DNA from: a virus
Lineage: Duplodnaviria > Heunggongvirae > Uroviricota > Caudoviricetes
IMG/VR virus record: IMGVR_UViG_2565956717_000009
Coordinates: 1 to 37,482 of that record
Length of the DNA: 37,482 nt
Reading direction: 5' to 3' (one strand)
A program made the position numbers and the translations under genes. The notes below the pieces were generated by a model that did not search any database, had not been told where the DNA came from, and saw only the letters and a program-made list of their open reading frames with translations. Below are positions 19,736 through 37,236 of the stretch, piece after piece. Position 1 is the stretch's first letter; each line of letters opens with the position of its first letter.

Positions 19736-20215
19736 TTAAATGATTTGCCAGTCTTCAGCCATCAGGTCGCCAATGGATGGAGCCCATGTAGCAAGGCGGT
19801 TCTGTGAGTTTTTCAATACAAGCGTGTCATTGAAAGTTGGCTCGCCAACATATTCGCCAAAGCCATAACCCAACGCAGACGCTAATTTTTCTCCTTTCAC
19901 GAGATAAACAAACTGATCTTTCCCATTCCATCCTGCCCGCTGCAAACTTTTGCCCTGTTTTAACGCTTCCATGGCAAGGCCGAAACTTAGCCCTGATACC
20001 GGACGATAAGCCTTTTCGAATACTTCTTTTGGACTCCAGCTAACGTAGCCATCAAAGCGATCGGTGTTAGGTTTTCCGCCATCCAGATATTCAACCAGAT
20101 AGCCTTCGTCCTCGCCGTTTTCTCCGGCAGGAAGCTGCCAGCCACGAAAATCGTTATATGCCTGTCTCGTCATCGGAAAGGCGTTAATCAGTTTTACGCC
20201 AATATGCTGGGTCAT
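19736..20215 (-). CDS. DUF2829-like protein (Tad2-family candidate); in-frame upstream extension to 20338 possible
   Basis: C-terminal half contains AMEALKQGKSLQRAGWNGKDQFVYLV, matching the recalled DUF2829 signature; ATG at 20215 chosen over 20338 because the N-terminal 41 aa look non-protein-like. Confidence 0.5.
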   Translation of the reverse strand: MTQHIGVKLINAFPMTRQAYNDFRGWQLPAGENGEDEGYLVEYLDGGKPNTDRFDGYVSWSPKEVFEKAYRPVSGLSFGLAMEALKQGKSLQRAGWNGKDQFVYLVKGEKLASALGYGFGEYVGEPTFNDTLVLKNSQNRLATWAPSIGDLMAEDWQII

Positions 20216-20437
20216 AAAATTACCTATGGAGTTGGGAATAAAAAAACCCCGCGAATGCGAGGCTAAATCCTGGTGTTTGTGATGACTGGCTCTTATCTCA
20301 ACGCAGCCCCTTACCGCGCGCCAGATGCTCAATATCAAGCATCAGCAATGAGATGTTTAATCTGGATTCACTCCAGAAGTGATCACCACCCTGTCTACAG
20401 AGCCAGATGTGAAGGATGATGAGTAAAATTATCGTTA

Positions 20438-20875
20438 TCATCGAAGGCATTGCGCCCTGATGTACTCCTGCAGGTAGTTAACCTGCGCGGTTATTCTGTC
20501 GATTCCACTTCGTAGACGGTAATAATTGAGTTCAGCATCTGCTGTAAGTCTTGGGCTTTCTCCATCGCCCATGCTGCTGGCTCCGGTCGTTGACTTTGCA
20601 CAGGTGGCAGCGACTTGCAGGCGCTTACGACCAGCAGAAATATCAGCACGGAGACTTTCGATAGTCGCGTTAGCATCAGCAAGCTCCTTTGTATATCTGG
20701 CATCGAGTTCTGCTACATCACGTTGACGCTTCTGCATATCAGCGATTGTGGATGTGGCCTTATCGCGCTGCTCTTTGTAGGTAATGGCGTTATCACGGTA
20801 ATGATTAACAGCCCATGACAGACAGACGATGATGCAGATAACCAGAGCGGAGATAATCGCGGTTAACCTGCTCAT
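20438..20875 (-). CDS. Rz: Rz i-spanin
   Basis: [34 protein letters not shown] matches recalled lambda Rz; ATGA overlap with endolysin stop. Confidence 0.85.
20491..20676 (-). CDS. Rz1: Rz1 o-spanin lipoprotein, embedded in Rz in the +1 frame
   Basis: Signal peptide with lipobox (LVVSAC) followed by a Pro-rich segment, wholly inside Rz. Confidence 0.7.
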
Positions 20876-21375
20876 TGCTGCCCCCACAAACAGACTTCAC
20901 GCTCAATATCGCGACGGGTCATCAGCCCTTTCCATTGCTTACCGCCAGCGTATGTCCAGCGACGCAGCTGGTCACATGCGCCCTTGATATCGCCCTGGTT
21001 GATTTTGCGAAGAAGCGTCGATGTTCTGAAATTGCCAGCCCCCACGTTGTAGACGAACGAGTAAAGAGCGCCGCGCGTTGTTTCCGGTATATCGACTTTG
21101 ATGTACGGGTTAATTTGTCTGGCGACCGTGGCAAGGTCTTTGTTCAGGAGAGCTTTGCATTCTGCTTCGGTATACGTTTTACCGAGCATGATGTCTTTTC
21201 CGGTGTGTCCGTGACATACAGTCCATACACCAACAATATCTTTGTATGGTATGTAGCTGACACCTTCCAGACCATCGTTACCACTTGGTCCAGTGATTAA
21301 CACAGATGCTATAGCAATAGCCCCGCCACTTATCGCCGCTATTACGCTATTTCGTAGTGCCGGTGACATTGCCAT
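20872..21375 (-). CDS. SAR endolysin (T4-lysozyme-like, signal-anchor-release)
   Basis: N-terminal Gly/Ala-rich SAR helix ([20 protein letters not shown]) then lysozyme motif; very close to recalled phage 21 R. Confidence 0.9.
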
Positions 21376-21550
21376 TCAATCTGTCCTCGCGCTCTTTGCG
21401 CTTGTAGTACCAGTTGATGCCAAATGTGCCGACAGTACAAAGAATACCAATGATGACAGCCCAGTCATTCAGGGAGAGAATGCCACCCATCGCAGTCAGT
21501 CCTCCGAAGCTGTAACTGAACCATTCTCTGATTTTGTCCATACGGTACAT
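21347..21550 (-). CDS. Class II holin (pinholin-like) with dual-start motif
   Basis: 67 aa, two TMDs, MYRMDKI start (Met1/Met4 with Arg between), charged C-terminus; precedes SAR endolysin. Confidence 0.75.
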
Positions 21551-25764: not shown

Positions 25765-27137
25765 ACGTCAGCCCCTTGTGCATATCGTCTGCCACGCGCA
25801 GCAGGTGCATTTGATGCTGTGCAAATCTGTCTGGCTTCATCCTGGTCACATGCAACAAAGTGTCCGTTGCAGAACCGCTGGTAAACCGTACCAAGTGAGC
25901 CAAAACGGTTTTTCGTCACAATGATTTCAGCAAATGGCGCGGCGCTACTGTTCTCGTCATATACCGCTTCCCGATAGAGCATGATGATTGAGTCTGCGTC
26001 CTGCTCAATGCTTCCTGAATCACGCAAATCTGCGTTTGTCGGGCGTTTGTTTGGTCGCTTCTCAACATCGCGTGAAAGCTGACTCAGGGAGATAACAGGC
26101 GTTTTCAGGTCTTTCGCCATCGCCTTCAGGCTTCCGGAGATGTGAGCAATTGCGAGGTCGTTGCGATCTGCTTTCGGCTTCTCAATCAGGCCAAGATAAT
26201 CCGCCATGATGAGTGACAGGTTTGGATTTTCCTGTTTGTGCCGTTCTGCGATTGAGCGTATTTCTTCGACCGATAACCGCGAGGCATCGACTACCCATAC
26301 ATCCAAATCTGCAAGCTGACTCATGCCGTTAGCAACGCGCGCCCAGCCTTCGTCATCCATCGATGCAGGATTTCGCAGCACGCTAACCGACATCCTCCCG
26401 GCGTTGGCAATGCTTCGCTCTGCAATCTGCAATGCGCTCATTTCCATCGAGAAAATCAATACTCCGCGCCGGACGTCAGAACCAGGAATAACGCGGCTTG
26501 CAACGCCTTCGGCAATCTTCAGCGCCAGTTCGGTTTTCCCCATACCAGGACGAGCGGCGATAATCACCAGGTCTTCCGCGTTCATCCCTCCGGTGATGGC
26601 GTCAAGTTCTTCGATTCCGGTCTTCAGGGTATCGGACTCTTCTCCGTTCCTCAGACGCCTGTCAAGCGTGTCAGTGTAGTCAGTGATGATTTCCCCTAAC
26701 CGTACAGGTTTAACCTCGTCACGGGGCTTTCTGATGGCTGAAAGACGCTTTACGAGCTCGTCCATCGCCTGACTCGATGTATCGATGGTTCCGCTCTGAA
26801 TTGGTTCACGCATTTCATCCATGATTTCCAGCACCAGACGGCGGTGATAGTTATCCGCGACCATTCCGGCATATCCCTTCAGGTTTGCGGCACTCGGGCA
26901 GTTTTTGCTGGTCATCAGGATTGACGTGAAATGCTCCTCTCCGCACGCCTCGGCAACCATCAGCGCGTCGATTAGGTTTCTGTTTCGCGCCTGCTTGCGG
27001 ATAACCTCGAAGGCTTTCCGGTAGAGCGGAATTGAAAACGCTTCCGGCTCCAGCGTTGCCAGAACGTCGCTGGCGGTTGGTGTTAATCCACCAATCAGCA
27101 GGCCACCGATAACGCTCGCTTCGATATCCTGTTTCAT
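25761..27137 (-). CDS. Replicative DNA helicase (DnaB-like, P22 gp12-type)
   Basis: 458 aa; Walker [18 protein letters not shown]; DnaB-like N-terminus; ATGA overlap with O-like gene. Confidence 0.9.
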
Positions 27138-28081
27138 GCAATCCCCCTGTCTGCAAACTTCCCTTCCCGTACTCCCGTTAACGAGTCTTCCCTCAGCAGG
27201 TAATCAAAATCTGCCGTCCAGCCCGTGTCGTTGTCTCCGAAGTAAAACGGCTTGGCCTGATGCACAAACGCCCTGACATACGCTCTGAAACCGTCCACGT
27301 TTGGCGTTTTCAGTTGCGGGATGATTTTCTTCAGGCGGCGTTTGCGTTTCTCGTTGACCGCAACAGCGTGTGGCAGTCTGTCACCGACTTCGGTGTTGTA
27401 GGCGTTCAGGAAGGATTCGTAGTCGATTCGTTCTGCCTTGCGACGTTCAGGTTTAACCTGCCCATCGCCTCCCCCATTGGGGGGTAGGGGGGTATTATTT
27501 ATATTCTTGTTAATACCTTCTTGTTCATGATGTGCGGTTGTTTGTGCGGCATCATGTGCGCTTTCATGTGCGGCATGTACGCTGAAAGCCGCGCCATTAC
27601 TGGCTTCATCATGTGCGGCATCATGTGCGGTTGTTTGTGCGGCATCATGTGCGGGTGAATTGTCCATTTTTTGAGCGTATTCATGGTAATTTGTGATGGT
27701 GATCACACGACCTTTTTGCTTCTCTCCATCAATGGTGATCATCCCCTCTTTCACAAAAACCTGAAGCATCCGCTCAACCTGATCACGGCTTGCCGGCTTG
27801 CCATGCCTGTCGCATAACTGAAGACCTAAATCAGCTGCTGTCACAACCAGTTGACCGGGTTGCAGATGCCATTCATGACCTTTGAAATTCGCTTTGTATG
27901 GCTTTCTGGCGGCATTCAGGAGAAGGTTTTCCCACAGGGTGCGAAGATAAACATCTTTCGCCCATGACTGTTTCAGAATGCTCCGGTACAACGGAATGTA
28001 ACCAGTTTTCTGGTTCTCCATCCTGTTGCTCCTGCGCTCGTGTGCGGCGCTGAAATCGTAGATTTTTGCTGTATTGCTCAT
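27134..28081 (-). CDS. Replication initiator, lambda O / P22 gp18-like, with internal origin
   Basis: [13 protein letters not shown]... resembles lambda O N-terminus (MTNTAKILNF...); central low-complexity HDAA repeats encoded by DNA iterons. Confidence 0.8.
27520..27660. repeat. Tandem direct repeats (candidate ori iterons) inside the O-like gene, next to an A+T-rich tract
   Basis: Repeated atcatgtgcggc / ttgtttgtgcggc units; adjacent A+T-rich stretch 27489-27517 (tattatttatattcttgttaatacc), as in the lambda ori layout. Confidence 0.5.
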
Positions 28082-28777: not shown

Positions 28778-28815
28778 CGTAGGACGAATGTCCATTGTGA
28801 AAATAGCGGTGTTAC

Positions 28816-29025
<210 letters not shown>

Positions 29026-29042
29026 TTAGTACATGCAACCAT

Positions 29043-29106
29043 TATCACCGCTAGAGGTAAAATAGTCAACACGCACGGTGTTAGATATTTATCCCTTGCG
29101 GTGATA
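29043..29106. promoter_or_regulatory. Operators OR1-OR2-OR3 with divergent PR and PRM (lambda-type)
   Basis: OR1 29043-29059 tatcaccgctagaggta, OR2 29067-29083 caacacgcacggtgtta, OR3 29090-29106 tatcccttgcggtgata; PR -35 TTGACT and -10 GATAAT on the minus strand. Confidence 0.8.
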
Positions 29107-29113
29107 GATTTAA

Positions 29114-29830
<717 letters not shown>

Positions 29831-29837
29831 CACGTAA

Positions 29838-30275
29838 ATGATTAAAGAACGTATTTCTTATATCATTCCGATTGCGATGGATGAAGGCAACCCAGTAACT
29901 CCAGTTCTTATCTATGAAATGGATAAAGACTCCCATGAAGTGGATCTATCATTTGGCGCTTTTTTTATCGGCCTTAAGGCTACAAAAAAATATTCCATAG
30001 GCATTGAGGTTTTCAATGCTCAAGAAATACCGATACCAATTGACACAAAACTGTACTCCAACCATAAGTTTTTTACGGTAGCAGAAGCCAACGATGGAGA
30101 AACCATCGTATCAACTTCTATGAGAATTAACTTCCCAAGGGTGAAAATTATCAAGCCTGGGATATTCGAAGTTAGAGCATCACTGGTTAATCCTGATAAA
30201 GGCGAAGTAATTGATGTAAAAAGTTCGTTTTTTGACGTGAAGATAACAGGATCGGTTCGCGATGAGTTTAGATAA
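29838..30275 (+). CDS. Hypothetical protein, first gene of the cI-downstream (rex-position) cassette
   Basis: 145 aa, starts 7 nt after the cI stop; visibly A+T-rich; no recognised motif. Confidence 0.6.
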   Translation: MIKERISYIIPIAMDEGNPVTPVLIYEMDKDSHEVDLSFGAFFIGLKATKKYSIGIEVFNAQEIPIPIDTKLYSNHKFFTVAEANDGETIVSTSMRINFPRVKIIKPGIFEVRASLVNPDKGEVIDVKSSFFDVKITGSVRDEFR

Positions 30276-30633
30276 CAAGGTTGCTCAGCTTCGTCCAAAT
30301 CAAAACATATCTCGCCCAATTGGACACTATTCCACTGATGATGCATACTCACGGCATGCTGGAGGAAACGGCGGAGGTAACATGCTTGAGGCTAGAGTTG
30401 CAAAGCTAGAGTCTGATGTTGAATACATCAAGCGCGATCTCGCTGAAGTAAAGTCAGATATAAAATCTGTAGATTCTCGTCTGTCAGGTATTGAGACAAG
30501 CATTAGCTCAGCAAAAATCACCATCAAGGCATCTGCGGTCGTTGTCAGTTTCGTGTTCGCATTTTGCGCCTACATTTTTGGAAGTTATGTTTCCAAAATC
30601 CTTGATGCCTTAAACGGACTCGTTCTTAAGTAA
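30262..30633 (+). CDS. XhlA-like tail-anchored membrane protein (coiled coil + C-terminal TM), second gene of the rex-position cassette
   Basis: 123 aa; Gly-rich N-terminus, heptad-like LEARVAKLESDVEYIKRDLAEVKSDIKSVDSRL, C-terminal hydrophobic ASAVVVSFVFAFCAYIFGSYV; 14-nt overlap with upstream gene. Confidence 0.6.
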   Translation: MSLDNKVAQLRPNQNISRPIGHYSTDDAYSRHAGGNGGGNMLEARVAKLESDVEYIKRDLAEVKSDIKSVDSRLSGIETSISSAKITIKASAVVVSFVFAFCAYIFGSYVSKILDALNGLVLK

Positions 30634-30638
30634 CACAC

Positions 30639-30666
30639 AACCCGGCCTCAGCGCCGGGTTTTCTTT
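30639..30666 (+). terminator. t_imm-like rho-independent terminator ending the cI operon
   Basis: aacccggc-ctcagc-gccgggtt (8-bp stem) followed by ttctttg, 6 nt after the stop at 30633. Confidence 0.65.
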
Positions 30667-30823
30667 GCCTCACGATCCCCTTCACCCAATAACACATAAC
30701 CAATTGTATTTATTTGAAAATTAATAGATACAACTCACTAAACATCGCAATTCAGATCTCTCGATCACCTCCCAAGCCACACACCCCTGCAAAAAAATAA
30801 ATCTATATAAAAAACATACAGAT

Positions 30824-30886
30824 AACCATCTGCGGTGATAAATTATCTCTGGCGGTGTTGACATAAATACCACTGGCGGTGATACT
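30824..30886 (+). promoter_or_regulatory. Operators OL3-OL2-OL1 with PL (lambda-type)
   Basis: aaccatctgcggtgata (30824-30840), tatctctggcggtgttg (30844-30860), taccactggcggtgata (30868-30884); -35 TTGACA 30858-30863, -10 GATACT 30881-30886. Confidence 0.8.
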
Positions 30887-30954
30887 AAACACATCAGCAG
30901 GACGCACTACTCACCAGGGCGGTGAATATACAACGATTCGAATATGAATCTACG

Positions 30955-31134: not shown

Positions 31135-31518
31135 ATGACACGCAGAACTCAGTTCAAAGGCAATTCACGTTCTCGTCGTCGTGAGCGTTTAAAGGCAAAG
31201 GCATTAGCTAACGGCGTACTGGCCCGCGAAGAAGCAATAAGTTCAGAAGTATTACACCGCCCTACTCTAAGCAGAGCGCAGATTCAGGCTAAAGGTACTC
31301 ACGAAACGCCTGAGCGCATAGAAGACGCTAAGCCAATTAAGTTCATGGCACAGGACGTGATCTGGCAACAGAAAGAATACAGACGCAATCTGGAGAGAGC
31401 GGCCATTGTGTACGCGAATGAGTTTGGACATAAGCAACCAGAAACTGGTGTATGTCTTCCAAATGTAGCTCTTTACGCAGCAGGCTACCGGAAATCAAAA
31501 CAACTGACGGCGAGGTAA
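31135..31518 (+). CDS. N: Antiterminator N (P22 gp24-like)
   Basis: 127 aa; Arg-rich N-terminal motif GNSRSRRRERLKAKA; C-terminus ...LPNVALYAAGYRKSKQLTAR resembles recalled P22 gp24; GGAGG RBS. Confidence 0.75.
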   Translation: MTRRTQFKGNSRSRRRERLKAKALANGVLAREEAISSEVLHRPTLSRAQIQAKGTHETPERIEDAKPIKFMAQDVIWQQKEYRRNLERAAIVYANEFGHKQPETGVCLPNVALYAAGYRKSKQLTAR

Positions 31519-31520
31519 TT

Positions 31521-31892
31521 ATGGGTCAGGAAGAAAAATATGAGCTTAAAAAGCTCATTGGAGAAGACGCCATAGAAGAAATTGCAGCATTAACAACAGC
31601 TATAAAGAATATTAGGTATGCGCTAAATACGCTTATCTCCTCATGCGACAAAAATAGCAGGGAATTTTTGATACTTGGCGCAGCTCTAGGAATAGTTGAT
31701 GCGGCAACGCTTCACCTAATTACTCATGACGATATTCTTATTGAGCCGTATGAAACATTACTGCTTGTCAGGAAAAAAATGGCTGATGCCGCAGCAAATG
31801 GAGACCTTCAACTTTACATCGACTTAAGGAAAGTATTAAGGCGAATGGTCAGAACTGAAGGAGATATCCCCCCTGACAAAATAAGGGGGTGA
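31521..31892 (+). CDS. Hypothetical protein directly after N (sieB/ral position)
   Basis: 123 aa from ATG 31521, 2 nt after the N stop; A+T-rich; no recognised motif. Confidence 0.55.
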   Translation: MGQEEKYELKKLIGEDAIEEIAALTTAIKNIRYALNTLISSCDKNSREFLILGAALGIVDAATLHLITHDDILIEPYETLLLVRKKMADAAANGDLQLYIDLRKVLRRMVRTEGDIPPDKIRG

Positions 31893-35633: not shown

Positions 35634-36064
35634 TTATCAGGCACTGCGTGCTAAGGCAGAAAAAAGCAACGTGTGGCGAGTGGTCGCTCGAATATGGAGA
35701 GGGCCGATTTGATGGTGATGATGCGCTAATTCATCGCGAGGCTGCTGGATATATTCCTATTTGCAGAATTGAAGGAGCGCATCCAGAAAGCGGTTTCGAT
35801 GAAGATTTCCAAATGGAACAGCAGGCCAATGCTGAATTCATCGCCGCAGCCAATCCGGCTACCGTGCTGACACTGCTGGACGAGCTGGAAGCAGCAAAAA
35901 AGCGCATTGCAGAACTGGAAGCACGGGAAATATCGCTCCCAGAACGTAGCAGCATGCTTCATCGAACAGATTTTCACGAGGATTACCAAACGGTAATGGC
36001 ATACAAAGTTTCTGAGGTCATCGCTGCAATCCGCGCCGCTGGCATTCGCATCAAAGGAGAGTGA
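35620..36064 (+). pseudogene. Ea22-like protein with an apparent +1 frameshift at an A6 tract (35660-35665)
   Basis: GTG 35620 opens frame 1 ([15 protein letters not shown]...), which stops at 35710-35712; frame 2 continues (...ATCGEWSLEYGEGRF...MEQQANAEF...IRIKGE) to 36064; removing one A joins them into a single roughly 148-aa protein. Confidence 0.3.
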
Positions 36065-36065
36065 G

Positions 36066-36257
36066 ATGAACGGACAAATCTCAATTGTTCGACCGGGAGC
36101 ATGTGACGATCGCGAGATACGAATGATTATTCGTCTGGCGATGGGGAAAACAATAACAGCTCTCATTACTCCAGAAAATCTCGCATTAGCTTTAACCGGA
36201 AAGTCAGACCTGCCAGTGGAGCTAAAACTGCGAAATGTTGAGATTAAGGTGAAATAG
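36066..36257 (+). CDS. Hypothetical protein
   Basis: 63 aa; AAGGAGA RBS 6 nt upstream. Confidence 0.5.
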   Translation: MNGQISIVRPGACDDREIRMIIRLAMGKTITALITPENLALALTGKSDLPVELKLRNVEIKVK

Positions 36258-36259
36258 CC

Positions 36260-36874
36260 ATGACCACTATTACCAAAGAACGTATTGAATTGTTCATTAA
36301 AGATCCGCTTGAAAACGGGCTTACTCGTGGCGAACAAATGGAACTGGCACGAATTGCACTGGCATCACTGGAACGCGAACAGATTCGCCACGAGCATGCC
36401 AAATGGTCTGACTCCACATTTGGCTGCGTTGGCCCCATTGGTCCGCTGAAACATCTCTCAAAAGAGGCTCTGGAAGCCGCAGCCGAACCTGACGATCTCA
36501 GCGAGTGGGCTGATATGCAGTTCCTGTTGTGGGATGCACAGCGCCGTGCTGGTATCAGTGATGCTGAAATTACCGCTGCTATGGAAGATAAATTGAAGAT
36601 CAACATGAAGCGCCAGTGGCCTGAACCAAAAGATGGTGAGCCTCGCTTGCACATTAAAGAACCCGGCAACTCTCCGGTAACTCCGGATGGTTGGATAAGC
36701 TGTAGTGAGCGAATGCCAAGCGAAGAAGATGTTTTGGTTTATTGCTCAGACACAAAAGAGCAGATGGTAGGGTTTCACAAAGGTAAAGGGTTATTTCAAT
36801 TCTTTTACATGAATGGTGTTGAGGGGGTATGTGAGCCGTCACACTGGATGCCGCTACCAGAGCCTCCACTTTGA
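36260..36874 (+). CDS. DUF550/DUF551-type prophage protein (recollection)
   Basis: 204 aa; C-terminal ...PDGWISCSERMPSEEDVLVYC...HWMPLPEPP resembles DUF551. Confidence 0.5.
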   Translation: MTTITKERIELFIKDPLENGLTRGEQMELARIALASLEREQIRHEHAKWSDSTFGCVGPIGPLKHLSKEALEAAAEPDDLSEWADMQFLLWDAQRRAGISDAEITAAMEDKLKINMKRQWPEPKDGEPRLHIKEPGNSPVTPDGWISCSERMPSEEDVLVYCSDTKEQMVGFHKGKGLFQFFYMNGVEGVCEPSHWMPLPEPPL

Positions 36875-36970
36875 AAGCGAAGCTTATACATATCTTTTAC
36901 ATCAGCAATCTATTGTTAATCTCCAATCAATGTTACGTTGTCATCTCACTCATGCTTTGGAGGTAGTGAT

Positions 36971-37150
36971 ATGTCTTGTCCAAAATGCGGTTCTGGAAAT
37001 ATTGCAAAAGAAAAAACAATGCGTGGATGGTCTGGTGATTATGTGTGCTGCGATTGCGGATACAACGACTCTAAAGACGCATTTGGAGAGCGTGGTAAAA
37101 ACGAGTTTGTTAAAATTAATAAAGAACGCGAAGGCAACGAAAAAAGCTAA
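36971..37150 (+). CDS. Zinc-ribbon protein
   Basis: 59 aa from ATG 36971 with GGAGG RBS at 7-nt spacing; CPKCG...CCDCG pairs. Confidence 0.5.
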   Translation: MSCPKCGSGNIAKEKTMRGWSGDYVCCDCGYNDSKDAFGERGKNEFVKINKEREGNEKS

Positions 37151-37213
37151 TTTATTTATTCATATATTAAAACAATGTAACCAATATTCGAATTGAAGAA
37201 CTGAAAGAACACC

Positions 37214-37236
37214 AAGCCGCCTGATGGCGGTTTTTT
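37214..37236 (+). terminator. Rho-independent terminator
   Basis: gccgcc-tgat-ggcgg followed by tttttt. Confidence 0.55.

Follow-up and report, generated by a model that had tools for sequence, protein, structure and literature searches.

Which function is carried by two small genes that stand where phage lambda has rexA and rexB? The question is raised by a prophage represented by IMG/VR virus record IMGVR_UViG_2565956717_000009 (Caudoviricetes), of which the whole stretch of 37,482 nucleotides (nt) was analyzed and is called the window below. Behind its lambda-type cI repressor gene lies a cassette of two genes, gene 1 and gene 2, that replaces rexA and rexB exactly. We tentatively propose that the cassette is a lysogen-expressed two-component exclusion module with the same slot and role as lambda rexAB, a reading to which we give slightly less than an even chance.

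The cI gene (29117–29830, + strand) encodes a lambda-type repressor of 237 amino acids, recognized by its Pfam HTH_3 and Peptidase_S24 domains (E = 6.8e-29). It is preceded by a region that carries OR1, OR2 and OR3 together with PRM (29043–29116, +), in which the operator sequences were read directly and the promoter role is presumed. The cI stop codon (29828–29830) is followed after a 7-nt gap by the ATG of gene 1 at 29838 (29838–30275, +; 145 amino acids), and gene 2 (30262–30633, +; 123 amino acids at full length) begins with an ATG at 30262 inside gene 1, such that the two genes overlap by 14 nt. An intrinsic terminator found by terminator scanning and folding (30639–30668, +) comes next, and consists of a G+C-rich hairpin at 30639–30660 and UUUUCUUU (−15.5 kcal/mol, z = −3.2). 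The right-hand edge of this immunity slot is formed by OL3, OL2, OL1 and PL (30824–30886, +), which were assigned by homology to lambda and include the PL hexamers TTGACA and GATACT at 30858–30886.

Comparison with lambda by BLAST establishes the limits of the exchange. From cro to cI, window positions 28802–29826 correspond to lambda 38255–37231 with 97.6% identity, and this identity stops at 29826, 4 nt short of the end of the cI open reading frame (ORF). It restarts at 30639, which is lambda 35826, the first base past the rexB stop codon, and the OL/PL side is 89% identical to lambda 35826–35550. Because lambda homology breaks off at the end of cI and resumes at 30639, the cassette is a precise substitution of lambda 35827–37230, the segment with rexA and rexB, and the terminator that follows is t_imm of lambda itself. 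There is no terminator between cI and the cassette, the first one being that at 30639, and we therefore infer from the sequence that gene 1 and gene 2 share the cI transcript from PRM. The G+C content is 0.374 for gene 1 and 0.427 for gene 2, compared with 0.458 for cI and 0.469 for the window. These results agree with a preliminary description of the locus, made from the DNA letters alone, which had reported two coupled, A+T-rich genes in the rexAB slot, beginning 7 nt past cI and ending at a t_imm-like terminator just before OL/PL. The assignment to this slot is further borne out by the recurrence of the family behind repressors and by the presence of other cargo in related imm-lambda prophages, as detailed below.

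The two proteins and their relatives

The gene 1 product is an acidic protein (isoelectric point 5.4) that is predicted to be soluble and cytoplasmic, with a highest 19-residue hydropathy of 0.81 and no hydrophobic segment. Its AlphaFold2 model, computed with a 20-sequence alignment, is an eight-stranded beta-sandwich predicted to be immunoglobulin-like (Ig-like), with a mean predicted local distance difference test (pLDDT) score of 87 and a predicted template-modelling score (pTM) of 0.81. No specific functional fold could be assigned to this model, as the structural matches were generic Ig-like domains with template-modelling scores of ~0.5, among them GH2 Ig domains, adhesin repeats, the carbohydrate-binding domain of Wzt, RhoGDI, MD-2 and NPC2. 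The recurrence of lipid-binding Ig-like folds in this set is a lead only. The family is small, and comprises 19 proteins in a profile search of 1.84 billion representatives.

In the AlphaFold2 model of the gene 2 product, residues 1–39 are disordered and end in GGNGGG, and residues 40–122 form one continuous helix. Residues 1–33 (30262–30360, +; pLDDT < 50) make up a variable disordered N-terminal module that is apparently inherited with gene 1. They are followed by the codons of a Gly tract and an internal ATG, that of Met41, which is a putative second start (30361–30384, +). The coiled coil of residues 42–88 (30385–30525, +), supported by heptad register and by conservation among homologs, contains the near-invariant core LEARVAKLESDVEYIKRD and spans seven heptads, with Leu, Ile, Val or Met at 13 of the 14 a/d positions. 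It leads straight into a hydrophobic transmembrane helix (approximately residues 89–110), for which the peak 19-residue hydropathy is 2.11 at residues 92–110, and this helix is followed by a conserved tail of 13 residues, KILDALNGLVLK. Together with the stop codon, helix and tail (30526–30633, +) constitute the 'type A' anchor module.

Comparison with orthologs of the type found in Salmonella phage epsilon34 gave ratios of nonsynonymous to synonymous substitution rates (dN/dS) of 0.11 in gene 1 and ~0.43 in the N-terminal portion of gene 2. By these values, both are under purifying selection and are real genes. Full-length matches assign gene 1 to phrog_5893 (E = 8.5e-65) and gene 2 to phrog_6136 (E = 1.3e-45), both of which PHROGs lists as 'unknown function'. 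The epsilon34 pair (genes 45 and 44), like genes 40 and 39 of phage g341c, is orthologous to the cassette and belongs to the same two families. Gene 1 has 74% identity to its epsilon34 counterpart, and over residues 1–67 of gene 2 the identity is 60%. The epsilon34 pair likewise lies directly 3' of the prophage repressor gene and ahead of OL/PL, although its repressor has a different specificity and its gene 44 carries a C-terminal coiled-coil and transmembrane module of another type. The 2008 report of the epsilon34 genome placed the pair 3' of the repressor "like rexA and rexB" and gave it no known function (PMC2629481).

The cassette shares with lambda rexA and rexB its arrangement of two genes right after cI, followed by t_imm and OL/PL, and its combination of one soluble with one membrane protein. 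The lambda pair excludes T4 rII and other phages, accompanied by depolarization of the membrane. However, RexA has 279 amino acids compared with the 145-residue beta-sandwich of gene 1, and RexB is a polytopic protein of 144 amino acids with four transmembrane segments, whereas gene 2 is predicted to cross the membrane once, as a tail-anchored coiled coil. Profile comparisons by hhalign gave probabilities of 0.1% for gene 1 with RexA and 0.5% for gene 2 with RexB. In PADLOC-DB v2, gene 1 has no match and gene 2 has only chance-level coiled-coil matches (E = 0.0037 and 0.034), and NCBIfam has no match for either protein. Against the PDB, the gene 2 profile recovers generic coiled coils, several of them trimeric (Lpp, P22 gp26 and CC-Tri). 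A different parallel is offered by gp30 and gp31 of mycobacteriophages Butters (PMC7542560) and Sbash, which reportedly combine a cytoplasmic with a membrane protein, are expressed from the prophage and provide heterotypic defense. Their membrane components are polytopic, proteins and hosts differ from those of the cassette, and homology is not expected.

Relatives of gene 2 are named 'hemolysin XhlA' by the Prokaryotic Genome Annotation Pipeline (PGAP). The likeness to PBSX XhlA, SPP1 gp24.1 and SPbeta BhlA is one of architecture, as all are short proteins in which a cytoplasmic coiled coil at the N-terminal side precedes a single C-terminal transmembrane helix. We did not accept gene 2 as a true member of this family, because the Pfam XhlA model (PF10779) scores 19.3 bits, below its gathering cutoff of 34.7, and hhalign gives 26.7% over 26 coiled-coil columns with the studied XhlA-type protein SPP1 gp24.1. 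Weak matches to PF10779 (E ≤ 0.01) occur in 31 of 49 members of the gene 2 family, the best with E = 8.3e-6. In addition, XhlA proteins are without the disordered N-terminus and Gly tract of gene 2, and the hosts of the cassette are Gram-negative. Unlike the XhlA family, the two genes stand outside any lysis cassette, with neither an XhlB-type holin nor an endolysin next to them; the prophage's holin, lysozyme and Rz genes are found at 20438–21550, away from the immunity region.

With regard to the proteins, the preliminary description had proposed a soluble gene 1 product, a gene 2 product with a Gly-rich N-terminal part, a coiled coil and a single C-terminal transmembrane helix, and a lack of resemblance to RexA and RexB. 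All of these features were recovered, and for gene 2 the structure model, the heptads and the hydropathy agree. The proposed likeness to XhlA stands as architecture, not as established family membership. The profile and structure searches that it had suggested matched no characterized function for either protein. It had also called the system undescribed, which holds in so far as no functional study of the pair was found in literature on XhlA-like defense proteins or by protein accessions and PHROG identifiers, but not for the rexAB-like position, noted in 2008, or for the two families, which PHROGs contains. The internal start, the mosaic structure of gene 2, the zinc-ribbon partners and the relatives in the P22 sieA slot go beyond that description. 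Four points appear to be new here: the view of the family as a whole, the precise exchange of rexAB in a lambda-immunity background, the presence of relatives in the sieA slot, and the putative second start within gene 2.

A family of paired and modular genes

Relatives of gene 2 fall into 73 close clusters, and the profile search raises this number to at least 567. All relatives found belong to Enterobacterales, including Escherichia, Salmonella, Klebsiella, Enterobacter, Citrobacter, Yersinia, Providencia, Serratia, Pantoea, Erwinia and others. The 120 top-scoring proteins listed in the profile search are 82 to 159 amino acids long and include no natural fusion of gene 1 with gene 2. The cassette itself is present at 98–99.8% identity in 16 of 5,426 complete E. 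coli genomes, one carrier being enteropathogenic E. coli (EPEC) E2348/69, whose annotation lists the two genes as hypothetical. No copy was found on plasmids, and megablast revealed no near-identical copy in sequenced phages.

For comparison of contexts, 93 assembled loci with a gene 2 relative were used. An upstream partner gene is tightly coupled to gene 2 in every one of these loci (93/93), and the spacing between the two is −34 to +6 nt at almost all of them. The partner belongs to a diverged beta-sandwich family that includes gene 1 at 65 loci, is a zinc-ribbon protein (CxxC...CxxC) at 14, and is a protein of 94 amino acids at nine; one singleton and another three partners, the latter recognized by inspection alone, are similar to these groups and did not enter a renewed clustering. 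For example, Enterobacter phage ENT1 (L003, 3578–4294) has a repressor gene followed by that of a 127-amino-acid zinc-ribbon protein (CPxC...CxxC), with no beta-sandwich partner. Located 3' of the zinc-ribbon gene are a gene 2 homolog with 70% identity and then a similar terminator. Judged by sequence, the ENT1 locus is a natural partner swap.

The pair is located directly behind a lysogeny repressor gene (cI-type, helix-turn-helix-only or Mnt) at approximately 80 of the 93 loci. A cI-like repressor with helix-turn-helix (HTH) and S24 domains is encoded directly 5' on the same strand at 60 loci, a Mnt/Arc-type repressor lies upstream in P22-like immI regions at 14 or more, and an HTH-only repressor does so at several. 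In P22, the slot between mnt and gene 16 holds orf59a-sieA, and this is where gene 2 relatives reside in P22-like phages. The remaining loci lie among tail genes, in moron positions. Examples come from Providencia and other prophages (L011, 3523–4369; L054, 2544–3276; L068, 2516–3360), where the pair is located after the tape-measure gene or beside genes that on visual inspection look like lambda K and L, and where it adjoins predicted lipoprotein morons. These positions show that the two genes travel together from one moron slot to another.

The imm-lambda slot is polymorphic in E. coli, as it contains rexAB, or a protein of 129 amino acids with or without an NYN-domain protein, or the present cassette. 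Other uncharacterized cargo behind the repressor is seen in slot entries L098 (1454–2311), L099 (1454–1843) and L100 (1446–2752). The 129-amino-acid hypothetical protein is the cargo in O157:H7, and strain TBE6 has a truncated copy of it together with the NYN-domain protein. In Nissle 1917 and NU14, which are of a different immunity type, a 185-amino-acid protein and a DUF1828 protein are encoded behind the repressor.

Alignments divide gene 2 into three modules. The first is the variable disordered N-terminus of 25–55 residues, which ends in an aromatic or His residue and the Gly tract. The second is the near-invariant core, GGGxGGG-x-M-LEARVAKLE[SA]DV.YI[KR]RD. The third is one of at least five unrelated, alternative C-terminal modules, each with one transmembrane helix at its end. 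Pairwise identity between partners correlates with that between gene 2 N-termini with rho = 0.30, versus rho = 0.08 for the core, which suggests that the N-terminal module travels with the upstream partner. In E. coli EPSSH018, gene 1 is identical and gene 2 differs in length (107 amino acids) and protein accession. The similarity of epsilon34 to the window breaks off inside gene 2, at 30378. A conserved hinge flanked by exchangeable modules, on what would be the sensor and the effector side, is typical of modular defense systems.

The boundary between the first two modules has a second possible role. The Gly-tract codons (GGA GGA AAC GGC GGA GGT) place GGAGG motifs 4–21 nt upstream of the ATG of Met41 (30382–30384). 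Among unique homolog tracts, 29 of 38 carry GGAGG or AGGAG in the Shine-Dalgarno window, compared with 19.0 ± 3.0 expected when synonymous codons are resampled at the codon usage of the cassette (p ~3e-4). The motif is likewise present in 18 of 24 clusters with less than 80% nucleotide identity, for which 11.9 are expected (p ~0.004). Met41 is missing in three sequences, two of which have GTG at the same codon and one TTG one codon downstream, and natural short forms of gene 2 that start at this Met exist (L061 and P0053). Because the Shine-Dalgarno motif is enriched, the start codon is conserved and short forms occur naturally, gene 2 probably yields a second product of 83 amino acids in addition to that of 123. 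This product would be without the partner-linked N-terminus and, if it exists, one sequence serves as both protein linker and ribosome-binding site. In lambda, rexB is additionally expressed independently from PLIT, an arrangement that the putative internal start of gene 2 may mirror. The two starts of gene 2 are 40 codons apart, compared with the two codons that separate the dual starts of lambda S (S105/S107).

A sigma-70-like site (30321–30349, +; TGGACA, 17 nt, CATACT) is located in the N-terminal coding region of gene 2, about 30 nt upstream of the internal Shine-Dalgarno motif and ATG. It could act as a promoter for the short form, in analogy with PLIT for rexB; however, its match at 9 of 12 positions is within chance expectation and was given no weight.

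Possible functions of the pair

Several observations favor the proposal that the cassette is an exclusion module. The exact exchange for rexAB keeps the end of cI and t_imm, and thereby fuses the genes to the cI operon. Related pairs occupy positions behind repressors at most of the 93 loci, and the repressor slot is a cargo hotspot. Pairing with an upstream gene is obligate throughout the set, the modularity of partners, N-termini and anchors resembles that of defense systems, and gene 2 has a likely second start. Distribution is restricted to 16 of the 5,426 E. coli genomes, to the exclusion of plasmids, and to prophages of Enterobacterales. Moreover, the prophage possesses a separate holin, lysozyme and Rz, so the cassette is not its lysis machinery. 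A role in defense seems well motivated by the combination of location and modularity.

Expression, interaction, topology and effector activity can be pictured as follows. Ribosomes that finish cI would re-initiate, first on gene 1 and subsequently on full-length gene 2, yielding a low level of both, and the Shine-Dalgarno motif in the Gly codons would drive independent, more abundant synthesis of the short gene 2 product from Met41. Gene 2 would be inserted into the membrane via its C-terminal helix, with the N-terminus in the cytoplasm, and would oligomerize through a parallel coiled coil of seven heptads. Gene 1 would act as a sensor or regulator: the beta-sandwich partner, or the zinc-ribbon partner in other phages, may bind the disordered N-terminus of the long form and keep the complex inactive. 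If the module of partner and N-terminus sensed a product of a superinfecting phage, the activated membrane oligomer might compromise the inner membrane or block a membrane-linked step, and the infection would be stopped.

Should phage exclusion be confirmed, the cassette would represent a compact defense family of ~0.8 kb in temperate phages of E. coli, Salmonella, Klebsiella, Enterobacter, Yersinia and relatives, with hundreds of protein clusters that are missed by current defense-finding tools. It would also provide a simple, small and naturally modular model for the gating of a single-pass membrane effector by a soluble sensor; how such control works is the central question of the 60-year-old Rex problem. 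Its exact exchange for rexAB on a lambda-immunity background makes the cassette directly testable by standard lambda genetics. A broader proposal, which we advance with somewhat more reserve than exclusion itself, is that the cassette is the founding example of a widespread, hitherto unrecognized modular prophage defense family in Enterobacterales, which would combine a dual-start, tail-anchored coiled-coil effector with swappable sensors and anchors and occupy both rexAB and sieA slots. The hinge of the effector would be the invariant Gly-plus-heptad segment, and the sensors would be beta-sandwich or zinc-ribbon proteins.

Some points weigh against exclusion. Neither protein has any likeness to PADLOC models, to RexA or RexB, or to solved structures of known defense function, and the predicted fold of gene 1, a generic beta-sandwich, says little about function. 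The mosaic pattern of gene 2 could also reflect the ordinary mosaicism of lambdoid phages. The Shine-Dalgarno enrichment is moderate when the codon usage of the cassette serves as background, and the sequences are mutually related. The interaction between gene 1 and gene 2 and the formation of a pore by gene 2 are conjecture. Furthermore, genes downstream of repressors do not always function in defense, as hex of phage 434 modulates repressor cleavage.

Exclusion need not be abortive, and gene 2 might instead hinder genome ejection or translocation at DNA entry, like P22 SieA, HK97 gp15 and T4 Imm, with gene 1 as a chaperone or as an insertion or stability factor. P22 SieA and HK97 gp15 are also prophage-expressed inner-membrane proteins in moron slots. 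Relatives of the pair do occupy the orf59a-sieA position 3' of mnt in P22-like phages, other relatives lie among tail genes, where we take the HK97 gp15 exclusion moron to be located, and the periplasmic tail of the type A anchor (KILDALNGLVLK) is strongly conserved. However, the five or more unrelated C-terminal anchors are interchangeable, and a specific contact of the transmembrane or periplasmic segment with ejection proteins is therefore disfavored. Block of DNA entry also fits poorly with the cytoplasmic location predicted for the conserved part of gene 2 and with a partner that is obligate, variable and cytoplasmic; P22 SieA acts alone, whereas the gene 2 system has two genes obligately. 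Nor was similarity to SieA detected: SieA is predicted to cross the membrane three times (four times in types B and C) and carries the motif FxRYPxEAxxFNK (PMC10883804), and gene 2, with its one helix and without this motif, was rejected as a relative. On balance, we regard action at DNA entry as improbable.

A function in the prophage's own life cycle has about the same small probability in our estimation. The pair could modulate the genetic switch or repressor stability, comparable to RexA, RexB or 434 Hex, or it could be a holin-accessory pair that acts at induction and is akin to xepA-xhlA of Bacillus, for which we assume a gene order with xepA immediately upstream of xhlA. The former possibility is in line with reports that genes 3' of cI can regulate the switch between lysogeny and lysis (PMC3564112, PMC11077077). 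The latter is favored by the XhlA architecture of gene 2 with its weak PF10779 matches, by a dual-start motif typical of holin-antiholin genes, and by the PBSX lysis cassette, which encodes both the putative holin XhlA and the beta-sandwich protein XepA (PMC6834076). However, the pair never occurs in a lysis cassette and is always in lysogenically expressed slots, the prophage has a holin, a lysozyme and Rz of its own, and neither an XhlB-type holin nor an endolysin adjoins the pair. The hhalign value for gene 2 with SPP1 gp24.1 is 27%, and gene 1 was rejected as a homolog of XepA or YomS, which are absent from its profile matches and from its top fold matches.

An addiction or host-fitness moron, either a membrane toxin (gene 2) neutralized by gene 1 such that the prophage is stabilized, or a tail-anchored stress protein like ElaB, YqjD or YgaM, would suit the order of a small neutralizer-like gene upstream of a small membrane protein gene, the linkage of expression to the repressor, the tail-anchored coiled-coil architecture in which gene 2 would resemble E. 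coli ElaB and YqjD, and the presence of the cassette in pathogenic strains such as EPEC E2348/69, but is unlikely given that Pfam and NCBIfam yield no DUF883 or toxin-antitoxin family match for the cassette proteins, that the cassette occurs in few E. coli genomes and exclusively at prophage hotspots known to carry exclusion genes, and that swapping of partners and anchors suits an arms race better than housekeeping.

Other features of the prophage

Outside the cassette, the window OR1 (29043–29059) reads TATCACCGCTAGAGGTA and differs by one base from the lambda OR1, which we take to be TATCACCGCCAGAGGTA. Lambda homology stops near 30925, just past PL. The N protein encoded at 31135–31518 presumably resembles the H-19B/933W type rather than lambda N, and the annotation of a related N in epsilon34 notes similarity to H-19B N. 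In this mosaic immunity region, the lambda segments from cro and cI to OL/PL are thus joined to a foreign N/nutL. An ORF of 146 codons without a Pfam match (31452–31892, +) overlaps the 3' end of N by 67 nt.

A replication-initiator-like protein (27134–28081, −) contains repeated protein motifs, and its overlapping frames are rich in PHMMPHK repeats. By analogy with lambda O, these repeats are likely to be origin iterons inside the gene. No Rfam family was found in the window. An ORF of 199 codons just 3' of Rz (19736–20338, −) encodes a Tad2-like (Thoeris anti-defense 2) domain (PF11195, E = 2.4e-21), and is a possible counter-defense gene in the late region. The tailspike ORF (1–2946, −), which begins at window position 1, encodes a P22 head-binding domain together with a K1 endosialidase (beta-propeller, beta-barrel and S74 chaperone), and its composition therefore marks the prophage as a P22-like/CUS-3-like podovirus with lambda immunity.

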